From: Nemertoderma westbladi
Taxonomy: Eukaryota; Animalia; Xenacoelomorpha
Assembly: GCA_032718475.1 (NCBI GenBank)
Contig: JAUCBJ010005476.1
Span: forward strand, 1 to 56,552
Direction: 5' to 3'
Length of the DNA stretch: 56,552 nucleotides
Below the pieces are notes generated by a model that made no database searches, had not been told where the DNA came from, and saw only the letters and a list, made by a program, of their open reading frames with translations. Positions 15,876 through 46,260 of the stretch are shown here, one piece after another (position 1 is the first letter of the stretch; every line of letters starts with the position of its first letter). The position numbers were made by a program, and so were the translations under genes.

Positions 15876-17669
15876 CAGTGCTCCCAGTTGCTACTTTTTT
15901 ACCTTTTTTACCTTTTTTCTAGCCATTTACCTTTTTTACCTTTTTTTTAACAACCCCAGATGATATTGATATATCAATATGTAAAGTCGTGTTATACAAT
16001 CTTAATGGTACAGGCGCATTTCCAATTTATATTATTTATCCAAATATTACTAGTAGGACTACAGTTGTATGGCCAATAGGCCTACTCATTCTGTTTTTCT
16101 GTTTGGTACACAGTACTGCAGTACACACTCAAACTCAGTCTGTCAATACTCAATAGGCGTACAGAAACTGAAAGATATCAGTGAGTCTGTTCTGTAGGCT
16201 GTATAATGTTTTGATTTGATTTGATGTATTCATACTGTATTAGGCAGCACTACCGTCTACTGTCACACTGTACAGTTGTACTGCATTCTGGCATTATCTG
16301 GCATTATAATTATAAGTTTATAATATTAAATATTATGACTACAGTTGTATGGCCAATAGGCCTACTCATTCTGTTTTTCTGTTTGGTACACAGTACTGCA
16401 GTACACACTCAGACTCAGTCTGTCAATACTCAATAGGCGTACAGAAACTGAAAGATATCAGTGAGTCTGTTCTGTAGGCTGTATAATGTTTTGATTTGAT
16501 TTGATGTATTCATACTGTATTAGGCAGCACTACCGTCTACTGTCACACTGTACAGTTGTACTGCATTCTGGCATTATCTGGCATTATAATTATAACTTTA
16601 TAATATTAAATATTATGACTACAGTTGTATGGCCAATAGGCCTACTCATTCTGTTTTTCTGTTTGGTACACAGTACTGCACTACACACTCAGACTCAGTC
16701 TGTCAATACTCAATAGGCGTACAGAAACTGAAAGATATCAGTGAGTCTGTTCTGTAGGCTGTATAATGTTTTGATTTGATTTGATGTATTCATACTGTAT
16801 TAGGCAGCAGCACTACCGTCTACTGTCACACTGTACAGTTGTACTGCATTCTGGCATTATCTGGCATTATAATTATAACTTTATAATATCCATCATCCAT
16901 GAAGAGGTCAACAATCATTGGATTGCGACACTGCCAAGAGGCAGTGAAATGGGGGGGGGGGGGGGGGGGGGGGGGTGCACACAATGTCGCTTTCACCAGC
17001 GACCTTCTTGCATCTGCCTCTAAGGCATGGGCTGCCTATAATGTTGAGCGTCTACAAGAAGCAGCGTATAAATTTGAAACTAAAAAAGCTGCCGAAACAA
17101 AGCGGCTTTTAGATGAAGAAAGCGAGCGTGAACTGCAAGTAAGAGCGGAGCTTAAACTCCGCAAATCATCTCTGACAAAGAAGCATAATACTATCACGAA
17201 CCTGTGTGTCTCTGTATAAACGATGATTAGAGTCGCTGATAGTCAACTGGCTTCTGCTCTGGCCAGTTGCGACTTGACCTCAGCTTCAATTGCGAATAAA
17301 TCCCGTGCGTCAGCAGATACTCAACTCAAAGACCATCAAAATGTATTGTGCTCTATTGCAAAGGAACTTTCTGATATAGATGTGAAGCTGGCTACTTCGA
17401 GCAGCAGGAAAAGGCAACGAGTTGATAAGGATTAGTTTAGTTAGGTGCCCTAATAAACTGATATGTTAACATAATGAATGATTATATTGGATTTGTTAAT
17501 ATGATATATAACATCTATCTCAAAATGTAATATTTGTTTTCTGGATACGGTTTGGATATGGATACTGGGTATAGGTTTGATTTTTAACCACCTTTTTTTT
17601 ACCTTTTTTTATGACCCATGTTTACATTTTCACCTTTTTTTTTGGTGGAAATTCTCCCTGGGAGGGCTG
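15876..17669 (+). mobile_element. Internally deleted hAT-like transposon with 6-bp TSD
   Basis: TIRs cagtgctcccag / ctgggagggctg. TSD ttatct at 15870-15875 and 17670-17675. Subterminal ttttacctttttt repeats at both ends. C-terminal transposase remnant STIIGLR..EAV..GG.HNVAFTSDLL..A..Y plus coiled coil at 16899-17435. Confidence 0.7.
16057..16888. repeat. 280-bp tandem repeat, 3 near-identical copies
   Basis: Units start at 16057, 16337 and 16617 (gactacagttgtatggcc...). Confidence 0.95.
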
Positions 17670-17851
17670 TTATCTGTAAAATTAAGATTTTTAATCAAAG
17701 CCTTGAAATGCTTTATAAGCATACAGTCTTTAAAAATCGGGGTAGCTACCACCGGATGTTTTGTCCAGTACATCCAATAGTCCTGTTTATTTATAATGCC
17801 TAAAAGCATTGTAAGCCTTCCTTCCTTCCTTCCTTCCACTGCATAGGGCCT

Positions 17852-19870
17852 AGCAATAGCAAGAGTCACCCATAATGGCATCAAATCAAGAAGTTAATAC
17901 ATCCCCTACGGTTGATCCGGATGTTTGTATGGTGGAGAAAGATGAGCCGATGCAAGGAACATCGTCGGAGAAAAGACCCAGTTCAAACGGAGCGTCCAAC
18001 TCCTCAGGGAAGAAAATGTTTCAACCGAGCCGCATGGCTCCTATGACTATTCTGCTGGACATTAATCAAGCGACGCCTATCGATGAAATACTGGAAATGA
18101 TAGTTACGGTTGACGATGCAGCCCTAGTGCATACTCATCTAACTAACAACATGCCTGGATGGCCGCAGAGTGACAAAGATAAACGTGTAACAGGGTATGA
18201 GCTGTTGATGAGCATCTCAAAGAGCATGATGGCGCTGATAAGCAATCGGCAAATTCTGGGGACGATCTTTGAAACCGGGATTGACGTTATGATGCTTGTA
18301 AAAAGGGCATGGGGCCTAGTTAGAATGGTGGAAGGCAATCTACAGGTAATTGTCCCCGAAAATAAAATGAAGGTCGAGGATGCCAAATCAAAATGGCAAC
18401 GGAACGGTGTGAGTGCTGAAGAAAGAACTGATAAAAAGTGGGATGAGTACTTGACCAATTACCCAGGAGAGGCTCTTTACGAGGACTCTGAAGACATTTT
18501 CTACCAGACCATAAGGCTTATTTCAGCTGATAGCAAAGTGACCATTCGCAAACTGAACATAAGTTCGGTTGCCAAGGTTATATTATCGGTGATCAAATCT
18601 CCCCGAGATTTTCGGTTCGGCGACTATGGTCCCAACGCCACAGAGGCGGAGTATTTAAAGAAAAGGTTGGAGACATTAGACAAAGGACTAGGGCTCTTTT
18701 CAGAAATTGCAACAAGATACCGGGCATTAGTAAACCCGACAAGGATGAATCTAACAAACGACTCAGCTATGAAGGTGAGAGACGCCCTGAGAGTGTTTGG
18801 TATAAAGGGCTGTGCCCTCGGCAAGAACGATCAAATAAAATACCAAAAGAACCTTGGTTTAGTCTACAAGCTTAAAGCCTTAAGCTCCCATCGAGGGAAG
18901 GTAAATCTTAAAAGACTGAACAACAACTCAGTGGGGAAAAAGGGGGGGCGTCGGGTACTAGGTAAAGACACCGCAAAAACTCAGGTGGCTGCAGTGAACA
19001 AAGCAGGGGCTACCAAGGCAGCCAAGGTGATAAGCGGGCTTATGGACTGCTCGGTGAGAGCTGAGCAAAAAGAGTTGATAAGAACATTCGGGCAGGAAAT
19101 GCCAAAAATGGAAAACGATGACTTTAAAAATGGCTTATCATTCATCCTTCAATCCTTTGCTACGTTCCTACCAAAGTCCCAAGAAAGAGGTTGTCCTACT
19201 CTGGATGTTAGATGCATGTATGGACAATCTTAATGTAATTGGAGATTTAGTCGGGTTCGAAAAGGGCGCTTTCAGATGTCGGGCAGAACTTCCAGTAAAG
19301 TCGAAGTTGGATCTCGGAAGGATCAATAATCAACCGGCAACGTTGCATGAACACCCATTCATACATAAGTGGGCAGCCCCGTTGAAGGGGTCCGCGACCA
19401 AATCGCAAACTGTTTCAAGGGACTTTATTGTCATCCCTTCTTGCCACTTTCCACGTATAAATTCCAATAAAATCAAAGGAAATCAGCATTGCTCACGTCT
19501 TTCAGTACCTGCAAGGCACGGGTTGCAGATCTCGTCGACAAAGAAATGCAAGACATTCGCAGCAGGAAAGTAACGGACGCCCAGTTCGATGGCGACAAGA
19601 TGTATACCTTTAATGTTGACAAACCGACTGGGAACATTGAAATTACTACCGGACCAATGCCGACTGCAAAAAAGTGGGCGATCAAAACCTGGCTATCTGG
19701 ACTGGAGCCTGAGGAAGAGGCGAAATAGACTTTTGCACGAATTAACTGCTATCTGTGCTTTATTTACGGTCGAACTTATCATAAACTTTATTATGCAATG
19801 TATATCTATGCAGTAATATGTAAAATGGCGTTAAGAGCCAAATATATTAATTTAAAAAAAAAAAAAAAAA
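17852..19870 (+). other. Endogenous viral element: retrocopied orthomyxovirus-like nucleoprotein (NP) mRNA
   Basis: Starts AGCAATAGCAAG, with ATG 23 nt later. Intronless NP-like frame 17875-19728, 125-nt 3' UTR, then A17 at 19854-19870. Composition is purine-rich and more GC-rich than the flanks. Confidence 0.75.
17875..19728 (+). pseudogene. Articulavirales-like nucleoprotein, ~617 codons, two frameshifts (~19190, ~19470)
   Basis: By-eye colinear similarity to influenza A / ISAV NP as recalled: ATRYRALV~ATYQRTRALV; CSVRAEQKELI~FQTAAQRAMM / CRTEEQRLL; LSFILQSF~LIFLARSA; LLWMLDACMDNLNV~LVWMACHSAAFEDLRV; KWAAPLKG..FIVIPSC~YWAIRTRS..ISIQPTF; DAQFDG~DVSFQG; acidic C-terminus. Confidence 0.75.
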
Positions 19871-21119
19871 GTGGTGGGCTGCTGGGAGACCAACCGGAAC
19901 CAGCGCAGTGGTTCTTCTGGGGCCCGTAGCCCTCCCCTCAGGGTCACCACCGTCAACTTCAAGCAAATCGGGCAGCTGTGCTTGGGCTGCCCGACTATGC
20001 TGAGGTCGACGGTGGACGCTGACACATCCATCTTCTTCTTTGATTAACCCATATCAGCGTTTAAACTAGTTAATTAATTAATTAAAGAAGGTTGGTTGGT
20101 TGTAGCAGAGTCAGTCAGTCCAGCAGTCAGTTGCAAAGTTTTCTGCAGTAATGCACGCAATGCAAAGACTGAAATAATTATTTATTCATTGAATGAATAA
20201 ATAAATTCGATTTAAATTAAATGAATAAACAAAACCATTTACATTACATCATTAATTACAGTTGCAACAGCTCATCTCCAAATTATTTAATTAATATCAC
20301 CTGGCAGCAATACCCAAGCTGAATATTTATTTATTTGTACTTCCCTCCTATTAATTTCCTAATTGATTTTGTATATCATTACCCTTAATTAAGATATAAA
20401 CTTGCATGCAGCTCATCTGCCAGGTCACTTATATACATGATGTAGAGAGAGGGTGTGCTAGGGCGTCTGCTTGTTTAGCTCCTCTGTGCTGTCGTATAGC
20501 GTCTAGTAATATTCCACCATCCGATATACAGAGATTCTATGATATACAGACATTCCATGCCATGGGGCTTATAATTATAACCAAGAATATTACCATAGTC
20601 ATACTATTCTATTTCAGTATTGTATCTGATTAAGATTGGATAATTGATTCAATACTAAAGTTAATATACATCCTCTATTTGATCCAAATAGATTAGGATT
20701 TTCATCACTTGTTGTTCCTATGATGGATTCGAAATCACCCCTTTCCCCACCAAGCAGCCAAGTACACTCCTTGTGGCACCTGTGTCAGAAGGTGAATATT
20801 TGATCTAGAACAAATTGAAACAAATTGGATACCCAAGGCGGACCGTTATATTATAATGCCCAAAACGTGTGAAATATCTTTTAAAATATGTGAAATAGCA
20901 TCTCAGGTACATTATAGCCAAAACTAAACCTTTTTGAACTCTGGGAGTGAGAAAATCGAACAGTTGTCCGAATACCGTATGGGAGGGAGGGAGGTGTTAA
21001 ATAAATTGCATTTTTTTTGTTTTTTTTTAGGGACCTATCATCAGCATTTACATTCGTTATAATGCAATGGCGAGAAAATGGCGTTATAATGCGATGCCAA
21101 GAAGTTCCTTTATTAATGG

Positions 21120-21650
21120 TCATAGTGGCATAGTGGCAAAGATACCGAAAGATCTTATGACACGAATAAAGTTAAGAAAGACGTAAGTAAACCCAAGGTG
21201 CGAACTAGTGGCAAGGGAGAACAGATAAAAACTACCCCTACGTCTCCCAAGAGAATTCCTGGTAGGAAGCCCGAAGAAAGAGCTAGTGACACTAGAGACA
21301 CTGACCATAGTTCGGAGATGGAAGGATTCTATACAGATGAACTTTCTGATGAAAATGAATCTTGTTATATGATCAACACAACCATATATCGAGCCCTTAC
21401 ATATGAGACAGAAACGGAGGGAGAAGAACACCAACTATCCATTCCGGATCGACAGCATTCATGGAAAGTTTCGACACCATCTGTCGGCATCCGAGAGTTT
21501 CCAGTGGTGCACCTCAGAGTACATGGACAAGGCAAGAGCTTAATAGTAAATGCACTCCTTGACTCCGGTAGTACGTGGGGTCATTTATCGCACTCCTGGA
21601 GCCGGGATTCCATTGGGGGTGGAGTCGACCCACCTCCACATTATGACTTC
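21120..21650 (+). mobile_element. LTR-retrotransposon gag/protease fragment
   Basis: FPVVHLRV...IVNALLDSGST retropepsin active-site motif in the N-terminal part of ORF 21198-22478. Confidence 0.6.
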
Positions 21651-24600
21651 GCGCCACACCACCAATTTAAACCATTTGAAGTTATACCGGTACCAGAAGT
21701 TGTAATGGGGAGAAAGAACAGACAGAAAGCTGCTGCGCTCCAACGGTCGAGAGGCAGAGGAGGATTCATTCGATCGATCAGCGAGGAAGAGGAACTGGCA
21801 GAAATTCTTAGTAGTACAGCGTCGGAGCGGAAAATTGGAGAAATGGCGGACTACTTGAAGGAGGAATATTCGGAGTTATCCGGGTATCGTATCCAGAGTG
21901 CGCGTAACATATCCAAGCTTATTAATTTAGCTTCGGTACACGGCAGGCATTGCACAGGCATTCTTTCGGGCTGCCAAAATAACTTTCTTACACTGGGGAT
22001 TGATTCCATAATGGAGTTTTCGTGCTCGGAATGTTCCTGGACCGAATGTTTGCAAGCTGCTGAAGCGGGGGACGACTCATCTCAATACGACAGAAATAGG
22101 GCGGTTATCCTGAACCAGCGGGCAGTTTATGCTATGAGCGAAATCGGATCTGGCCTTGAGGATTTATTTAGTATTTGTGAGATCCTCGGTATCCCATGCG
22201 TTATGGCTACAACAACCTGGTCCAAGCATCTCGATAAGATAAGCTCTGTGGTAACTAAGATAGCAGAAAGCAACTTAGTCGAGAACAGGAAGAGTTTGAG
22301 GGGCGATTCTGGGACAGAACCTGTGGCTGTACCGGTATCCTACCATGGTACGTGGGGGACTAGAGGCCACACTGCCAATTTTGGAGTTGGAATATGTATT
22401 TCAATGGAGTCCGGTTTAGTACTGGACTATGGTGTATGGTCTAAATTGTGTAAATTGTGCTTTTGCACCTTTCCCTAAAAAATCCATAGAATATGCGGAA
22501 TTTCTTGAGAGACATTCCCCTGATTGCCCGGGAAATTACAGTTCATCGAGTGGGCAAATGGAAGTGGATATAGCTACAGATATTTTCGGTAGGTCTGCCA
22601 CTCAACTTTTTTCACCCGACCATGGACTTTTATATTCAGAACTGATATGTGATGGTGACAGTGCGGCCTATAATAAAATCGCAAATGTAAATGGGGTCTG
22701 TGGCGGTTGCGAAAAATATCAGTCCATGTCTAGCAAGGAAAAAATAGAATTCAATGAGAACAATGTAGAACATTGGGAGAAACAAGAACTTGGGGAAGTA
22801 GACTGTAAGCGAGTTGTGAAAATGGATTGTGTGAACCACGTAGCAAAGCAACTGGGAAAGGGTTTACGTGATCTCAAATCTGGAACTAAGGGTAGATTGT
22901 CTGATGGAGGCTTTATAGGAGGGAAAAAACACCGACTGACACAAACGACAATAGTGAAGTTGACTGGTTATTATGCGAAGGCAATACTGAGTGCTGTTGA
23001 TAGGGGTGCCCAAACTGAAAGTGAAATAGAATCAGCTGTTCACAAAATGAAGCGAAATATTCTTGCTTCATTTCGACACGGGTGGCTCAAATGAAAAGCG
23101 CCACTTCTATTGTCCAGAGGGTAGTGACAGCTGGTGTCCATACAAAAGAGATGGGAAACCGGTGGTAGACAAGGACCACCACCTAGATGCTGTTTTCTTG
23201 TCCCTCTTATTACCCTTGTATCGTTGCCTTTCTAGTAATCTACTTCTCCGGCGCTGCCTACCAGGCTACACGCAGAACGCAAATGAATCCATAAACTCGT
23301 TGATCTGGGCTAGGGCACCAAAACAAATGTTCTGGGGTCCTGTGCGATCGAAGCTTGCTGCAGTGTCTGCTATATTGCAGTTCAACAAAGGTGCTTCTTG
23401 TTGCTCGGAAATCTTGCATGAACTGGGATATGGGGAACCGACTTATATCACATCAGAGCTACAGGCAAGGAGGGATACACGTAGACTGAGCAACTCTGTG
23501 GAGAAGGTGAAGGTAAAGCGTCAGCGATACGAGGCGAAGGTGAAAAAAGCAAAGCTTGACAATGATGGAGAAGTAAGTGATGAAGATGGCTACTGTCCCG
23601 GAAAGTTTGGAGACACTATGTGAGTGAAATCAACTCACAATTGTTTCGCAATATTAGGTGTCTACTGTATATATATATAATACATATATATATATATAAT
23701 ATATATATTTTAGATTTTTGTGCGTGCATCACTGCCTTTATGTCATAATATTGATATTACAATAAAAATAATAATTAAAATATTGATGTCAATAATAATT
23801 TTATAAAAAAATATAAAAAATAGTAAATAAAAAATATTTAGTGTTACTATTTTTAATATTAATTAAATATATTAATTTTTTAATTTATTAACATTATTAA
23901 TGTATTATAAAGCAAAATCTTTTAAAAAGAAATTTTTATGTAATGTAAAAATTATTTCAATCAAAATCAAAGAAAAAATAGCGTGATATTAATAATTGCA
24001 GTATAATTAAATATATTTATATACATATAAATAAATATATATATTATATATATATATATATATATAGAATTATAATAATGCATGTGGAACATTAAAAAAA
24101 TGAAAATCAGATAAGATAAAAAACAGATAAGATTTGGCTATAACAGTTTATTATGTATTTATTCCACACTTCAATAGAGTCCTATACTCTTATAATTAAT
24201 GTTTAACAAACTTTAACCCTTTCGGTACCATGGCTCACCCATGCGAGCCACGTCAATAGGCACCTTGGCTCGCATGTATGAGCCATAGATTTAATATGTA
24301 TCTATGGGTGATTAGTTGCCAATGGCGCATAAGTGGCATAATTCAAATATATCTGGCGCACTCTAAGAAAAATTTCAAAAACCTAAACCATGGTTGGGAC
24401 CTACCATACTGCCTGACTGCAGCCACCAAACTGTAGCTAACATACAATACATTTCTGCAGTCTGCATATTACATAATATAGGTACTGTACACATGTTTTA
24501 TAACCACTTCTTCACATTATTAATTAGAGATGTCTGGCTCACTTTAGGGTACTGTAACATTCAGAACTTATATTATTTTAGATAGCCGTTTAGTGTTTTG

Positions 24601-25187
24601 GTTATATTTAGTGGCCAAAGCGAAATGAACTGAAACGATGTGATTTTTATTTATGATGAAGGTTTTTTTTAACCACGTCTGCATTTATCAATTAGATAGG
24701 TCTGGCTCGCTCTAGGGTACCGTAACATTCAGAACTTATATGATTTTAGATGTCCGTTTAGTGTTTTGGTTATATTTGATGGCCAAAGCGAAATTAACTG
24801 AAACAAGGCGATTATTTTTGATGAAGGTTTTTTAACCACGTCTGCACTTTATCAATTAGATAGGTCTGGCTCGCTATAGGGTACCGTAACATTCAGAACC
24901 TATATGATTTAGATGGCCGTTTAGTGTTTTGGTTATAGATTGAGTAAACAATGTAATGTTCCTTTTGGAATGCCTAACCATGTAAGCATGCAGGCGTGTG
25001 ACCCTAACCCTAAGTTAATTTTTCCCAATTACATATAATTATTATAATTTCAGTCTGGCAGTGCTGTACCATATATGCTTTCACTCTGGTAGTTTTAGAT
25101 ACAGTAGGCCTATAGGCCTACTGATATACACTACGCACTAGATTTACTTATTTAGATATACACTGTACACTGTTAGTTGGCCATGTC

Positions 25188-27023
25188 ATGTCACCATTAT
25201 TTATACTGGTCCTGTTGACTATGGGGGAAAGATTGCCGGTACAGCGACCAACAAGGACTACAGCACCACCGCGTTATTATGGATTTGATCCGGAAGGTGA
25301 TGTCGGAGCGGATTTAGCTGAAGTTGGAAGCGATTATGATTGTAATTCTACGACAACTAGTAGTGGAGAGAGTTCTTTCGGTACTGATAGTGAAACTGAT
25401 GATGACAATCTATCGAGTACCGGTACCGTTACCGGTACAGATGATGATGATGGGTTATACTCCTTACCAGAAGAACCATGGACTTTTGTAAATCCCGGAG
25501 ACGATAGTTATAACGCCACCCATCCAATGACTTTTACAGGTACGCCAGGGTGGACCAACGGCATAACTATCGGAAACGATTTCAATGAAATAGACTATGC
25601 AAAGTTGTTTCTAACTGATGAATTATTTACAAACATTACAGACTGGACTAATAAGAGAGGCGAAATGTATATGCAGGCAGATATTTCCAAATCCTGGAAA
25701 CCTGTGTCTTTAGAGGAAATGAAGAAATTTATTGGACTTACAATCCATATGGGTATCCTAAAGAAGCCTGACATTCGCTCATATTGGGCCACTGATGAAC
25801 TCATGGAGACACCGTTTTTTTTTAAATTTGACTCTATGAGTAGAAACCGTTACATTAGAATATTGAAATGTATTCGTTTTTCAGATCCAGACCAAGTTCT
25901 ACACAACGATAAAGAGTCACGAATTCGAGGATTAGCTGAAATTACAAACAAAATCTGCAAGCAGTATATTCCGGACCGAAATTTATCCATCGATGAATCT
26001 CTGATGTTACACAAAGGAAGACTTGCATTCAAAATGTTCATAAAAACTAAACGGGCGCGTTTTGGAATAAAACAGTTTATTGTGTGTGATCATCGTGGTT
26101 ACATGGTACAAGTACGTGTTTATTTCGGTAAGAAAGTCCTTATACCCCAAGTTCCTACAACTGAGTATATTTCCATGAGCGAAAATATAGTTGCATTGTT
26201 GTTAGCAGAATCAGACCTGTTAGATAAAGGATACATTGTCCATATCGATAACTGGTATTGTAGTGTTAGATTGGCAGAATTTCTTTATAACCGCACTACT
26301 GCTCTACGAGGAACAATTCTAACTAAACGCGGAATTCCATCAATGTTGAAATTATTTCAACAAATCCCAATATCTGCGAAATTTATGAGATTGAATTACA
26401 TGCTTGCGGTCAAGTATACTGACAAGCGCGATGTATATGTATTGTCAACAATAGATGATGCCGGGTTGGTTCCAAAATCCCGCATAGAGCGAGGTGGCGA
26501 CACTCGTGACTACAATAAACCACTCTCAATTGAATTATATAATAAAAACATGGGCGGGGTTGATGTACAGGACCAGTTATTGGATTATTATAACCCGATT
26601 CGCCGTAGTCACACATGGTTCAAAAAGATAGGTTTCAATTTTATCGCACGTCTTCTACTAAACGCTTTTATTATCTTCAAGTCGGAAAGGAAATCTGTGA
26701 AAGAAAAACGTAATGCTACTCTCCTTCTATTTGAAAAGAAGGTAGTTATTTGGCTCACTAACATGGAGTGTAAATCACCACGCCGAAAGGGTAAAAGGAA
26801 ACCCCCAATCCCCCCCAGTTCCCAAATATCACCAGTTCCGACAATACATACTCTAATATTGATACCTTCTACTGCTTGTGTAAAGAACCCAAGGAACCGA
26901 TGTAGAGTGTGTTACCAGAAGGGTAAACGTAAGCTTACGCGATACTATTGCCCTCAATGTGAAACGAAGCCTCCCCTGTGTATCGACTGTGTTTCAATAT
27001 GGCAGCATTCAAGTGGATCGTAA
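25188..27023 (+). CDS. piggyBac transposase, intact 611 aa
   Basis: Acidic N-terminus, DDD triad (SIDESL, HIDNWY, GGVDVQDQ) and C-terminal cysteine-rich domain CRVC..YYCPQC..PLCIDC..H. No stops. Confidence 0.93.
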   Translation: MSPLFILVLLTMGERLPVQRPTRTTAPPRYYGFDPEGDVGADLAEVGSDYDCNSTTTSSGESSFGTDSETDDDNLSSTGTVTGTDDDDGLYSLPEEPWTFVNPGDDSYNATHPMTFTGTPGWTNGITIGNDFNEIDYAKLFLTDELFTNITDWTNKRGEMYMQADISKSWKPVSLEEMKKFIGLTIHMGILKKPDIRSYWATDELMETPFFFKFDSMSRNRYIRILKCIRFSDPDQVLHNDKESRIRGLAEITNKICKQYIPDRNLSIDESLMLHKGRLAFKMFIKTKRARFGIKQFIVCDHRGYMVQVRVYFGKKVLIPQVPTTEYISMSENIVALLLAESDLLDKGYIVHIDNWYCSVRLAEFLYNRTTALRGTILTKRGIPSMLKLFQQIPISAKFMRLNYMLAVKYTDKRDVYVLSTIDDAGLVPKSRIERGGDTRDYNKPLSIELYNKNMGGVDVQDQLLDYYNPIRRSHTWFKKIGFNFIARLLLNAFIIFKSERKSVKEKRNATLLLFEKKVVIWLTNMECKSPRRKGKRKPPIPPSSQISPVPTIHTLILIPSTACVKNPRNRCRVCYQKGKRKLTRYYCPQCETKPPLCIDCVSIWQHSSGS

Positions 27024-39838: not shown

Positions 39839-42800
39839 TTCCAAATCAGCATGTTTTATTGATATAAAATGTAGATGAACTGTTTAATTCAATGCTATAG
39901 ATATGTACAGGCAGACCAATAAGCTGGGGTGCTGCACCCATGTTGTGACACAATAGGTGGGAAGCTCGCCCTATTGGTGAAGGGAAGTTTCCATCAGTTT
40001 TCCTAAAAACATAAATGCTCATGTCCAAAAGGATGTTGACTTCACTTCACTGGGCGTGTCTGTAGGTTCTACAGTAGGTGCCATAAAATACAGTAGCTAA
40101 TGGAAGAGACACATTGTTTCCTACCATCAACGTCATTGTCAACGTTATTGTCATTATCAACGTGAACGTCAACGTCTCCATCGTCATTGCCCTGCATGGT
40201 TGTTGATGTCGTCATCACCGTCATTGTCGTCATGTCATATTTAACCATAAACTGTAACCCGTGAACTTGTAAAAAGTGTCATTATTATGAAACCACAAAC
40301 TTCACCTATCGTGTCACCCTTCTATTGTGCTCTAGAAAATAATGTGCAGTTTAAATGATTGAAATAACTGATATGTCCAGTCCATGCCATTCGAACTAAA
40401 CTTTATTTACAATCTGTGAGGCGGGAACGACGCATATGGTTCGTGTGTCTTGATCCACTCCTAACTAACAGGAACGAGACAGTGAAGTCAGAAAGGGGAA
40501 GAAAAGTATCATCAAAAAATACCATCACATTCAAAATTTCAAAATCATTGACAAAAATCATTGAATCACGTTCAAAATCATTGACAAATGTCAATAGACA
40601 CTTCTGATAAATGCTGGTATGAGGTATCATTTTGGTATTCATGTCACTGGCACAGTAATAATACCAGCAACGGGGGAATCTGGCGATATATAACACTCCT
40701 TCCCATTTATCATTGTAATCTTAAAATTCGTTCTGAATTTTTCAATCGAAGTAGCAGACTCGATTTGAAATCGATTTGAACTGGGAGGTTCTACAGGCCC
40801 AGCTGCAGCGTTTAAAGCCTTTGAAAACACCTTGGACACTGTATCCACTGGATTAACCACTTTACCACAACATAGCTCCTCCACAACACTTGCACGGTCT
40901 TTACTTGCCCCACATACAGGACATGCTATAAAGTCCTCTTCAATCTCCTCTTTACAACCATTGACACCGCATATAGGCATTGTTTCAATTTAATGGATTT
41001 CAGTTATTGTTGGAAAACACAATGATGAATTTGTAATTATAAACAAAATATAATATACCACACACAACACAAAATGCACATAAACACACAACACAAAATG
41101 CACACAAACACACAATTATAAACACACAATACACAATTATAAACACACAACATACAATTATAATATAAACACACCATACACTCTTGCCCTCTCCCACACT
41201 CGACTTACAACACAAATTTAAGAAAAGCTCAGAAATCGATAACGGACTACATATGAGGTTTGATATCGGAGTATACGAAGTTCAACAGGTTCACTCAGAG
41301 ATGAATACCATACAGAAACTGAATTTTTAATATTTGGCTCTATTAAAGTATAACAGGCAATATGAGGCAGATAGCTACTAGTAATGAGCTCATTGCAAAT
41401 GATAAGACAATCCCTGCCAGATTCAAACAAATAAATATCACTCACAATCATAAATTTTGGAAGTTCCGTCTCGTTATCAAACGAAACTGGCACTGAGATA
41501 ACGCTGCAGTTTGCAATTAAACTATTACCATAATGTGATATTTTTAAATAGCGTTCGAATCTACAATCTCCAACAAAGGATAACTTTGGTACATGATGTA
41601 CACCAATAATTCGTACATATAAAAAGCCAGTTCTGTTGACAGTGAGTGAATGACCTTGATGGCGTTTGGTTAAATATAATGGTATAATTTAAAATTTTTT
41701 TGAATAACCACCCATTTTTTTAGAACATTATGGTGACCTTCAAATCGCGTTGCCCAGTGACTACTTGGTGGTTCAAAATTCTTAATATATCTAACAATGT
41801 GCATCATGCATACATACATAATGCAGCTTTGGGAAAGTCAGTCCATAGGTAAAGAAAAAAAGTGTGCAATGAGTTTCGATTAAATATTCTAAATATATAA
41901 GTTGATTTGTACTTATTGAATATTGTAAACATAGCTCAATAATCTCTTGTACTTATTGAATATTGTAAACATAGCTCAATAATCTCGTATAGTTTGATGA
42001 AGCAATTCCAATATTGTTCAGATCACTAAAAAATTCGCCTAACAAAACAGGGATAATTCTCATCAAAATTAGCATTTGTATAGCAGTTTGTCTCAGCCGA
42101 TTGCAACTTTGACAGTTCTATTCAACAAGGAATGTCTTTTTTTTCGTTTTCAGAAAAATTGTTTGAAAATATCCATCTGTTCAGATCCTCAATTCCTAGA
42201 AATTTCCATTTGCATATCATGCCTTTAAATCTGCAGTAAAATCCCATCTCCAAGACCAGTGCAAATTCTTATATAGCAGTATTTAGTTTAGTTCAATATT
42301 AAATAGGTGCATGTGCAATAATTAGTAATAATGATCAATATTGTATTTCTTGTATCTTATTTAGTTTAAATTATATAATTATTCTATATACAGTAGTTAG
42401 TTTAGTTTGTATTGGCAACCAAGTAACTTGAAGGACCCCCTTGGAAATAAGCAGCAAAGCTTTAGGGGTTATCCTTTATGTTATGTTGGACAATGCTTAC
42501 TATACATTAATAATTTTACTGAGTTAATGTATTGGTTTCTATTGTTTGCATAATATATAAATAAATCTATCTATCTATCTACAGCATAGTGTAAAAGCAA
42601 CTTAATTTCAGCACTTACAACACCTTCCAACATATCATGATGAAAGTCATGAATGACACAACTTGTAATATTAAAGTGTGGGATATCCGATAATATACTT
42701 GGGAAATTTATACCGTATTTTATGGAATTATCTTTTTGCTTATCAATTGGTAACTTGTGATCTGTGACTGCCATAAGTTGCTCAGTATAATCGGCTTCTG

Positions 42801-45800
42801 TTCTGATATTGAGAGAATCAGCCTCAAAATTTCGCCTTTTTTTTACCTTACAGTTTCTACAAAAGCAATCTGCTGAAGCGCTTGCTTTGAAGCCGCTTAC
42901 TAGAGCTGCAACAGGATTATCTGCTATTAAACAGATTAACGCCCCATAGTACATTTTAGAATCAATAAATATTCCCTGAGATAAAACTTGCATCGCATGT
43001 TTTTTGAAATCGGATAAAATCTCAAAAATATAATTGCGAATATCTGAGGTGTAGCAAAGCGCCGTATGAAAATACACTGAAGTTTTGCTCTATATTTCAG
43101 CCTTATATTTGAAATGGTCCAATAAAATGCGCTGGAACTCAATAAAATAACTGTCATTCTGAGTTAGTGATAATTGAAAAACTGGGTGATTTTTACAAAA
43201 TTCACCATCAGATATATATTGAATCAGATCAGTGTTAGGCTTTGCTGTGTAATTCTTATGAATTTGAAGTTCGTTTGTAACCTCTAAATTTTTTAATAAT
43301 TCAGTGAGTTGTATTAACAATGGCACATAGGAGAATCGTGATATATTTGGAAAGCTTAGTGACACAGGGTCAACCAAACCGTGTGCAGTTTAAATGATTG
43401 AAATAACTGATATGTCCAGTCCATGCCAATCGAACTAAACTTTATTTACAATCTGTGAGGCGGGAACGACGCATATGGTTCGTGTGTCTTGATCCACTCC
43501 TAACTAACAGGAACGAGACAGTGAAGTCAGAAAGGGGAAGAAAAGTATCATCAAAAAATACCATCACATTCAAAATTTCAAAATCATTGACAAAAATCAT
43601 TGAATCACGTTCAAAATCATTGACAAATGTCAATAGACACTTCTGATAAATGCTGGTATGAGGTATCATTTTGGTATTCATGTCACTGGCACAGTAATAA
43701 TACCAGCAACGGGGGAATCTGGCGATATATAACACTCCTTCCCATTTATCATTGTAATCTTAAAATTTGTTCTGAATTTTTCAATCGAAGTAGCAGACTC
43801 GATTTGAAATCGATTTGAACTGGGAGGTTCTACAGGCCCAGCTGCAGCGTTTAAAGCCTTTGAAAACACCTTGGACACTGTATCCACTGGATTAACCACT
43901 TTACCACAACATAGCTCCTCCACAACACTTGCACGGTCTTTACTTGCCCCACATACAGGACATGCTATAAAGTCCTCTTCAATCTCCTCTTTACAACCAT
44001 TGACACCGCATATAGGCATTGTTTCAATTTAATGGATTTCAGTTATTGTTGGAAAACACAATGATGAATTTGTAATTATAAACAAAATATAATATACCAC
44101 ACACAACACAAAATGCACATAAACACACAACACAAAATGCACACAAACACACAATTATAAACACACAACACACAATTATAAACACACAACATACAATTAT
44201 AATATAAACACACCACACACTCTTGCCCTCTCCCACACTCGACTTACAACACAAATTTAAGAAAAGCTCCGAAATCGATAACGGACTACATATGAGGTTT
44301 GATATCGGAGTATACGAAGTTCAACAGGTTCACTCAGAGATGAATACCATACAGAAACTGAATTTTTAATATTTGGCTCTATTAAAGTATAACAGGCAAT
44401 ATGAGGCAGATAGCTACTAGTAATGAGCTCATTGCAAATGATAAGACAATCCCTGCCAGATTCAAACAAATAAATATCACTCACAATCATAAATTTTGGA
44501 AGTTCCGTCTCGTTATCAAACGAAACTGGCACTGAGATAACGCTGCAGTTTGCAATTAAACTATTACCATAATGTGATATTTTTAAATAGCGTTCAAATC
44601 TACAATCTCCAACAAAGGATAACTTTGGTACATGATGTACACCAATAATTCGTACATATAAAAAGCCAGTTCTGTTGACAGTGAGTGAATGACCTTGATG
44701 GCGTTTGGTTAAATATAATGGTATAATTTAAAATTTTTTTGAATAACCACCCATTTTTTTAGAACATTATCTTATGTTACTAACTAAACCTTATCTATAA
44801 TAATCTTATTAATCTTATTAATCTTAATACCTTATCTATATTACTTCAAATCGCGTTGCCCAGTGACAACTTGGTGGTTCAAAATTCTTAATATATCTAA
44901 CAATGTGCATCATGCATACATACATAATGCAGCTTTGGGAAAGTCAGTCCATAGGTTAAGAAAAAAAGTGTGCAATGAGTTTCGATTAAATATTCTAAAT
45001 ATATAAGTTGATTTGTACTTATTGAATATTGTAAACATAGCTCAATAATCTCTTGTACTTATTGAATATTGTAAACATAGCTCAATAATCTCGTATAGTT
45101 TGATGAAGCAATTCCAATATTGTTCAGATCACTAAAAAATTCGCCTAACAAAACAGGGATAATTCTCATCAAAATTAGCATTTGTATAGCAGTTTGTCTC
45201 AGGGAATATGTCTCAGCCGATTGCAACTTTGTCAGTTCTATTCAACAAGGAATGTCTTTTTTTTCGTTTTCAGAACAATTGTTTGAAAATATCCTCAATT
45301 CCTAGAAATTTCCATTTGCATACAGCATAGTGTAAAAGCAACTTAATTTCAGCACTTACAACACCTTCCAACATATCATGATGAAAGTCATGAATGACAC
45401 AACTTGTAATATTAAAGTGTGGGATATCCGATAATATACTTGCAAATTTATACCGTATTTTATGGAATTTTCTTTTTGCTTATCAATTGGTAACTTGGGA
45501 TCTGTGACTGCCATAAGTTGCTCAGTATAATCGGCTTCTGTTCTGATATTGAGAGAATCAGCCTCAAAATTTCGCCTTTTTTTTACCTTACAGTTTCTAC
45601 AAAAGCAATCTGCTGAAGCTCTTTCTTTGAAGCCGCTTACTAGAGCTGCAACAGGATTATCTGCTATTAAGCAGATTAACGCCCCATAGTACATTTTAGA
45701 ATCAATAAATATTCCCTGAGATAAAACTTGCATTCCTTTTTTTTTGAAATCGGATAAAATCTCAAAAATATAATCGCGAATATCTGAGATGTAGCAAAGC

Positions 45801-46260
45801 GCCGTATGAAAATACACTGAAGTTTTGCTCTATATTTCGGCCTTATATTTGAAATGGTCCCATAAAATGCGCTGGAACTCAATAAAATAACTGTCATTCT
45901 GAGTTAGTGATAATTGAAAAACTGGGTGATTTTTACAAAATTTACCATCAGATATATATTGAATCAGATCAGTGTTAGGCTTTGCTGTGTAATTCTTATG
46001 AATTTGAAGTTCGTTTGTAACCTCTAAATTTTTTAATAATTCAGTGAGTTGTATTAACAATGGCACATAGGAGAATCGTAATATATTTGGAAAGCTTAGT
46101 GACACAGGGTCAACCAAACCGCAATGCTGTACAAAAAACTTATGCCGCTGAGATGTTGATGACTGATTGAGAAAAAATGATTCAGCATGCTCATAGCCAC
46201 GTTGTGCTAGTAAATCTTTATAACCATCTTGGTAAAATGAATATCTTTAAAAATATTTTA
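39839..46260 (-). mobile_element. EnSpm/CACTA-like transposon relic, with ~2.7-3 kb tandem duplication (40343-43381; 43382-46121)
   Basis: FYWTISNI..YRAKL..I, LIADNP..A..GF..S....CRNC and HDFHHDMLEGV motifs. A downstream zinc-ribbon ORF MPICG..C...CPVCG (40639-40980, 43678-44019). The ORF track repeats at offset 3039. Confidence 0.75.
42217..42581 (+). mobile_element. 3' stub of the Crack-like LINE family, present only in duplication copy 1
   Basis: Matches 12640-13048 (FKSAVKSHL, gaccccc-ttggaaataagc hairpin, (CTAT)n). The empty site ttgcatacagcatag is at 45316-45330. Confidence 0.9.

Follow-up and report, generated by a model that had tools for sequence, protein, structure and literature searches.

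A polyadenylated, virus-type coding unit in the genome of Nemertoderma westbladi, probably copied from an orthomyxovirus-like nucleoprotein mRNA

The stretch of Nemertoderma westbladi DNA analysed here (the window; contig JAUCBJ010005476.1, 56,552 nt) contains an intronless unit at 17852-19870, made up of a short leader, a 452-codon open reading frame (ORF1), two more open stretches that run to 19728, a 3' tail and a terminal A17 (Table 1). Its longest open frame measures 457 codons from stop to stop, compared with a maximum of 248 and a mean of 110 in 1000 shuffles of the unit, and its GC content is 45%, against mostly 31-44% across the window. ORF1 comprises a low-complexity N-terminal tail with two basic clusters (aa 33-47), a predicted helical body and a basic middle, residues 261-438 containing 36 K/R versus 15 D/E. 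The final 15 aa of the third stretch include four D/E and two K/R. A variable basic N-terminal region and an acidic C-terminal end, as in Articulavirales nucleoprotein (NP), are present, although this is a weak and common feature. The original prediction, made from the letters of the sequence, had described an intronless 2.0-kb unit in which a 452-codon ORF continues through two frame changes to 19728 and is followed by poly(A), and all of this is borne out by the frames and by read contigs. It had also noted an absence of transposable element motifs, and Pfam indeed finds no transposon domain in the three coding stretches. No additional piece of the unit was found elsewhere in the window.

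Table 1. Coordinates of the unit, its flanks and the blocks compared by eye with orthomyxovirus nucleoproteins
Feature	Position	Strand	Basis or likeness
Left flank, patchwork of low-copy host repeats	17000..17800	.	depth 75-82 vs 19-22 (X1, X2)
14 nt between (CCTT)5.5 array (17816-17837) and virus-like terminus	17838..17851	+	position
5' untranslated leader, 23 nt, orthomyxovirus-like segment terminus at start	17852..17874	+	terminus comparison
ORF1, 452 aa, ATG at 17875	17875..19233	+	open reading frame
Basic N-tail	ORF1 N-terminus	+	like Quaranfil NP, by eye
Block	ORF1 aa 186-197	+	with influenza A 72-83; K187/K188 at influenza A R74/R75 and ISAV K185/R186
Block	ORF1 aa 281-286	+	with influenza A 150-155, 5/6 identical
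Basic pair	ORF1 K322/K325	+	with ISAV K296/R299
Block	ORF1 aa 398-405	+	with Thogoto 220-227, 4/8
Block	ORF1 aa 417-441	+	with ISAV 361-385
First break, frame change	19177..19200	+	by-eye spacing vs reference NPs; in all three read sets
Second coding stretch, W motif and tail-loop-like P..R segment	19180..19470	+	frame open 19082-19573
Block	second frame aa 34-58	+	with influenza A 325-349
Block	second frame aa 64-69	+	with Thogoto 329-334
Block	second frame aa 97-102	+	with Thogoto 357-362, 4/6
Tail-loop-like segment	second frame P119..R125	+	with influenza A P410..R416
Second break, short frame change	19455..19500	+	open-frame ends; also in read contigs
Third coding stretch, 85 aa, acidic end	19471..19728	+	first frame reopened; by-eye block
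C-terminal block, 41 ungapped columns, 9 identities	third stretch	+	with influenza A NP 435-475
3' untranslated tail, 125 nt	19729..19853	+	without AATAAA or ATTAAA in last 40 nt
Poly(A), 17 nt (A17)	19854..19870	+	bridged by X2 contig
Right flank, low-copy host repeat truncated at poly(A)	19871..20127	.	variant contigs, 4-10x unit depth (X1, X2)

The window is rich in transposons of animal type, with Mutator-like, piggyBac-like, Plavaka-like, LTR-integrase and LINE reverse-transcriptase remnants. Pfam matches were obtained for 8 of 14 window ORFs in one scan and 2 of 6 in another, and 3 of 14 scanned ORFs match RVT_1 as LINE reverse transcriptase fragments. A Mutator-like transposase lies at 21126-23623 (+) in three overlapping frames (PF20700; ORFs at 21126-23094 Mutator-like), the first ORF of which opens with an unrelated stretch containing the retropepsin-like word LLDSG. 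An uninterrupted 632-codon piggyBac-like transposase (PF13843, E 1e-58) at 25125-27023 (+) is possibly young. Two copies, 97-100% identical, of a block of about 3 kb that contains Plavaka-like transposase fragments lie at 40343-45829. Upstream of the unit, 280 nt are repeated in three tandem copies, 98% alike, at 16043-16889, followed by a G25 run at 16951-16975.

The presence of the unit in DNA was assessed with Logan contigs from three runs (X1, X2 and X3) of two studies, which the tool guesses to be DNA. All three are possibly source data of the assembly itself, X1 and X3 are listed as the same sample, and the holders of the unit amount to two samples. Each run contains 99-100% of the unit's sequence words, with contigs covering 17773-19840 in X1 and 17773-19905 in X2 with no differences, and 17771-19840 in X3 with one. 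Since contigs of three runs match the unit with no more than one difference, both breaks in its reading frame are genuine in the DNA. At 18737, within ORF1, X3 differs at full depth and X1, the same listed sample, does not; this is possibly an allele. Both junctions are bridged by an X2 contig, which reaches 79 and 35 nt beyond them; X1 and X3 bridge the left junction only. Integration in host DNA with bridged junctions is thus seen via X2, possibly the assembly's own source. The depth of the unit against neighbouring unique DNA is 18.6 versus 21.2, 22 versus 22.7 and 174 versus 150, although depth in read contigs does not equal copy number, as the tool warns. An assembly chimera, which the original prediction had raised as a concern, is opposed by the X2 contig, which crosses both junctions with no differences, and by a depth like that of the neighbours. 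In two further runs under the same species label, X5 and X6, the unit is unseen; X5 also lacks the flanks and X6 is tiny, so that neither run is informative. No run holding the unit among those listed is an RNA run.

The left and right flanks are unrelated in sequence, and no left-to-right joint is found among the read contigs listed; nor is an empty-site joint listed among the contigs of X1-X3. The longest word shared by the 80 nt around each end is 5 nt, so that no target-site duplication longer than this is seen. On the minus strand, 19871-20031 carries the start of an ORF (53 codons, with a CxxC pair) that lies in the low-copy repeat, ends at the poly(A) and has no Pfam match. It may represent the 5' part of an element interrupted by the insert. 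Other copies of this repeat have 8 extra bases at 19922. Further to the right, 20228-20349 is a very high-copy short repeat, with a depth of tens of thousands, that also occurs in X5, a run from which the remainder of the region is missing.

At its 5' end the unit matches 10 of the 12 nt of the influenza A terminus. Such matches occur three times in the window where 4.46 are expected, and for this reason only the place of the terminus, 23 nt before the ATG, is informative; the chance of meeting one in the 50 positions before the ATG is about 0.002 (4.46 per 113 kb; hand arithmetic). The first 5 nt, AGCAA, equal the consensus AGCAAAGA given in PMC3003268. In orthomyxovirus mRNAs, stuttering adds the poly(A) at a point 13-18 nt ahead of the end of the segment (PMC3003268, PMC5884886). 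Here, the A17 directly abuts the host repeat, the segment end is absent and no AATAAA or ATTAAA lies in the 40 nt before the A-run. The short 5' and long 3' non-coding regions, of 23 and 125 nt, resemble those of ISAV, reported as 8-48 and 67-147 nt (PMC3003268). The mRNA anatomy of the unit, with its AGCAA leader, long 3' tail and poly(A) without a host signal, fits orthomyxoviruses. The 14 nt that precede the terminus could be host flank or a putative cap-snatched leader, influenza A leaders of this kind being 10-13 nt long (PMC3893164).

In addition to the unit, two or more sister copies with a likeness to it of about 83-85% are present in the same runs (contigs at 82% likeness), a finding that goes beyond the original prediction. 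Known only as short pieces, they are represented over 19348-19473 by contigs of 706, 593 and 379 nt, with 21, 18 and 21 differences and depths of 30, 26 and 177; the differences, 18-21 per contig, fall within 119-126 nt, and X2 holds two variants and X1 three. Further sister pieces lie near 18450-18490 and 18805-18852. Among the 14 differences listed in 19384-19441, a count that leaves five rows and places near contig ends outside, 12 change the third base of a second-frame codon (P=8e-5), against one for each of the other two frames; by our own reading, 11 are silent at the residue level. Thus, the second frame is the coding frame, and the copies have diverged under selection at the protein level. 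Because the window copy is broken, selection would most simply have acted on the progenitors, which would then be several virus strains captured separately.

Searches of protein collections returned no relative. In Pfam, the three stretches match no family at E<=1, and when the first break is read through with X, the only row is DUF6671 (E 0.022). Flu_NP, the Pfam family of the influenza-type nucleoprotein, gives no row at E<=1 or E<=10, and the unit is not filed as an influenza-genus NP. PDB sequence searches, including the read-through of the first break, found no relative; some lectin rows were rejected as arising from the summing of three repeats. No relative was found in a collection of 5.8 billion proteins (searched with whole ORF1, with the second frame against longer proteins, and with ORF1 225-445), in the ESM Atlas (ORF1 55-452), or in IMG/VR and the JGI metagenomes. 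Two matches among 1.84 billion representatives were discarded, both being long tandem-repeat translations. This orphan status among 5.8 and 1.8 billion proteins is unlike a conserved host gene. Single-sequence fold models are mostly helical, with the first 54 residues appearing disordered and the next 80 helical, but at a pLDDT of 35.5 and 34.7 they are too poor to count either way, and the Foldseek and VIA rows obtained from them are uninformative. The top BFVD row, A0A1L3KE82 (448 aa, E 0.015, 16% identity), is non-significant. The profile or structural match to an orthomyxoviral NP that the original prediction looked to was thus not obtained: Pfam, PDB sequence and fold searches are blank, and the models cannot be weighed. 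ISAV and influenza NP have a common fold although their sequences show no significant similarity (PMC3771910). Blank searches are thus no surprise; they do not refute the NP reading but leave it unconfirmed.

A search for natural orthomyxovirus segments through the terminus motif listed 80 of 105 stretches, all internal to contigs of at least 4 kb and none related to the unit (tblastn). As no natural segments were recovered, known NPs were compared by eye. The references were five natural NPs, those of influenza A, ISAV, Thogoto, Dhori and Quaranfil, from the supplement of PMC12277240; closer relatives may exist among the NPs of tunicate influenza-like viruses (10.1101/2024.12.15.628590) and the NP sets of PMC10636315. 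About 11 blocks follow one another in the same order and with similar spacing as in the references (Table 1). The C-terminal block has a hand-summed BLOSUM62 score of 38, a value that 0.3% of 3000 random partners attain when held near the C-terminal register and 4% attain when position is unconstrained. In contrast, the best ORF1 block (score 27) is at chance level, reached by 68% of 600 random partners. As five references were inspected and the blocks were chosen afterwards, the likeness is suggestive only. The colinearity with influenza A and ISAV NP that had been proposed in the original prediction is visible by eye against natural NPs, but only the C-terminal block, in register, beats chance.

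Some of the putative blocks fall on residues of known function. Mutagenesis ties the basic pairs of the RNA groove, R74/R75 and R174/R175 in influenza and K185/R186 and K296/R299 in ISAV, to RNA binding (PMC3771910). Basic residues here appear to match at such positions, although those blocks alone are at chance level. In influenza NP, R416 of the tail loop is partnered by E339 and matters for oligomer formation (PMC6346101). A comparable arginine is seen here six places after a proline, as in influenza A, Thogoto and Dhori, but the partner position holds D and not E, and the loop has no aromatic residue at the conserved site two positions past its proline, the aromatic being displaced.

The likeness appears to be a mosaic, in which the C-terminus and promoter are influenza A-like, the N-terminal length ISAV-like, the loop Thogoto-like and the tail Quaranfil-like, and no genus is therefore named. 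With influenza A NP (P21931) the unit would share five blocks in order, including the C-terminal 41 columns, the R74/R75 region, 150-155 and P410..R416, although it has about 114 more residues before the core, D at the E339 position and no Pfam or PDB sequence match. With ISAV NP (YP_145803) it would share a core starting at nearly the same residue number, K322/K325, the block at 417-441 and an acidic end. The ISAV N-domain, however, has three strands and two helices (PMC3771910), whereas here 54 disordered-looking residues precede 80 predicted to be helical. Likeness to Thogoto is apparent at 398-405, ahead of the tail loop and within it, and likeness to Quaranfil in the basic N-tail; the NPs of Thogoto, Dhori and Quaranfil are 454-527 aa long, and none has a significant pairwise match to the unit in any search.

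The same comparison bears on how the frame was broken. About 9 codons separate the last NP-like block of ORF1 from the E339-like motif, compared with 60-66 residues in influenza A, Thogoto and ISAV, and the first break is for this reason likely to be a loss of some 50-55 codons and not a one-base slip. ORF1's final 10-15 codons would then likely sit beyond it. It had been proposed that two frameshifts interrupt a near-complete NP of ISAV-like length (about 616 aa). Both changes of frame are in the DNA, and the second is a short one near 19455-19500; the first, however, has likely lost a block. Likewise, both ends are present, but some 50-55 internal codons of the reference NPs have no counterpart. 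The length argument would then fail, since with the missing block the protein would exceed 616 aa, and the match of the 618-codon span to the 616 aa of ISAV NP would be coincidental. If the unit is an NP copy, it is unlikely that the block was removed by nuclear splicing of the viral mRNA in the host, ahead of the copying step; a template jump, a defective viral RNA or a later genomic deletion are the alternatives. Some orthomyxovirus mRNAs are indeed spliced (PMC5884886), and the sole AGG word in 19161-19215, at 19188, reads as an exon-exon junction consensus. Nevertheless, such a word is expected by chance in about 1 in 10 windows of 20 nt (hand arithmetic), and by eye the likeness of ORF1 to ISAV and Thogoto NP extends two or three codons beyond it.

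We consider it likely that the unit was made by a LINE from the nucleoprotein mRNA of an undescribed Articulavirales lineage. Of the orthomyxo-like fossil in the original prediction, what stands is a well-preserved, endogenised, polyadenylated, virus-type coding unit; its identity as NP has neither a profile nor a fold match behind it. The mRNA might instead have come from another RNA virus, such as a Mononegavirales or bunya-like nucleocapsid or some other viral gene, with the orthomyxovirus likeness read into it. The unit's orphan status, the selection among sister copies and the poly(A) suit any stuttering negative-strand virus, and the best BFVD row carries no name. This origin is improbable, however, as no Pfam nucleocapsid family of any kind matches, and orthomyxoviruses are favoured by the AGCAA start, by the order of the blocks, by the spacing of the tail loop and by the C-terminal block.

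It is quite improbable that the unit arose as a processed pseudogene, whether from a fast-evolving host gene or from an accessory gene of a transposon, with paralogues as its sister copies: the unit has no relative in any protein collection searched, no transposon domain, no canonical host poly(A) signal, no spliced joints among the DNA contigs listed and no further piece in the window. It is, on the other hand, intronless, poly(A)-tailed and in a transposon-rich region, and paralogues under selection would likewise differ at third positions. An assembly chimera or contamination by viral RNA is hardly credible even though the assembly may have been built from the three runs that contain the unit, given that the tool guesses these runs from two studies to be DNA, that an X2 contig spans both junctions without a difference and that depth equals that of neighbouring unique DNA.

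On the preferred reading, that of a copied nucleoprotein mRNA, a nuclear-replicating orthomyxo-like virus would have reached the germ line of the animal, where the viral polymerase would have made capped NP mRNA in the nucleus and stuttered before reaching the end of the segment to give the poly(A). This abundant mRNA may then have been copied to its 5' end by a LINE reverse transcriptase that primed on the poly(A) at a chromosomal nick. Related virus strains would have been captured more than once. The block of about 50-55 codons may have been lost before, during or after copying, the short frame change presumably following. Of the hallmarks of a retrocopy, the unit is intronless and has a 3' poly(A), while a target-site duplication is absent. 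Some LINE clades leave no target-site duplication. With neither a duplication nor an empty site found, the LINE step rests on the poly(A), and the unit works like a LINE-made retrocopy without being classed as one of L1 type. As a nucleoprotein it is likely dead; its product would be, at most, a predicted stump of 452 aa that lacks the tail loop, or small RNAs.

A more specific proposal is tentative, and we doubt that it holds in full: that the mRNA belonged to a deep Articulavirales lineage known almost only from PB1 ('Cnidenomoviridae' or basal invertebrate clades), caught at least three times from different strains, and in its entirety, from an influenza-like promoter, perhaps preceded by a leader snatched from the host, through to the poly(A). 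Deep lineages of the order in aquatic invertebrates are known mainly from PB1 (PMC10636315, PMC12277240). Petrone et al. report that further polymerase segments went undetected in their divergent invertebrate libraries (PMC10636315), and the table of other segments in the supplement of Leung et al. has NP matches for only three host species (PMC12277240). NP segments are described for tunicate influenza-like viruses (10.1101/2024.12.15.628590). Host assignment from RNA libraries is uncertain, whereas a germ-line fossil shows that a virus replicated in the animal's lineage. If true, the present reading would fix a real host for a deep lineage and provide the first search seed for its missing nucleoproteins. 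An NP so divergent, with its influenza-, isa-, thogoto- and quaranja-like mix, would anchor the history of the order and serve as a query for living relatives, while the sister copies would record strain diversity.

This type of event is already known from mosquitoes and ticks, and the identity of the unit here is not tool-confirmed. Among the literature titles listed, none concerns an Articulavirales NP fossil outside arthropods. In Aedes, orthomyxovirus-derived elements represent single segments, mostly nucleoprotein (180, or 81% of those found); many are frameshifted, 12 are full length among all genes, and many copies occur per genome (PMC10956553). Without exception they resemble Quaranjavirus, with 26-91% identity to viral proteins already known (PMC10956553), whereas the unit described here is invisible to every search run. 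An orthomyxovirus-derived element is also known from the tick Ixodes (PMC2987831). On the insect elements, neither poly(A) nor duplications are reported to have been seen (PMC2987831); the present unit differs from them in its poly(A) and apparently complete 5' end. It also resembles the LINE-made nucleoprotein retrocopies of bornaviruses and filoviruses in mammals (PMC2987831): although these carry target-site duplications and none is seen here, the unit, like them, would place a whole viral mRNA with its poly(A) in a chromosome.
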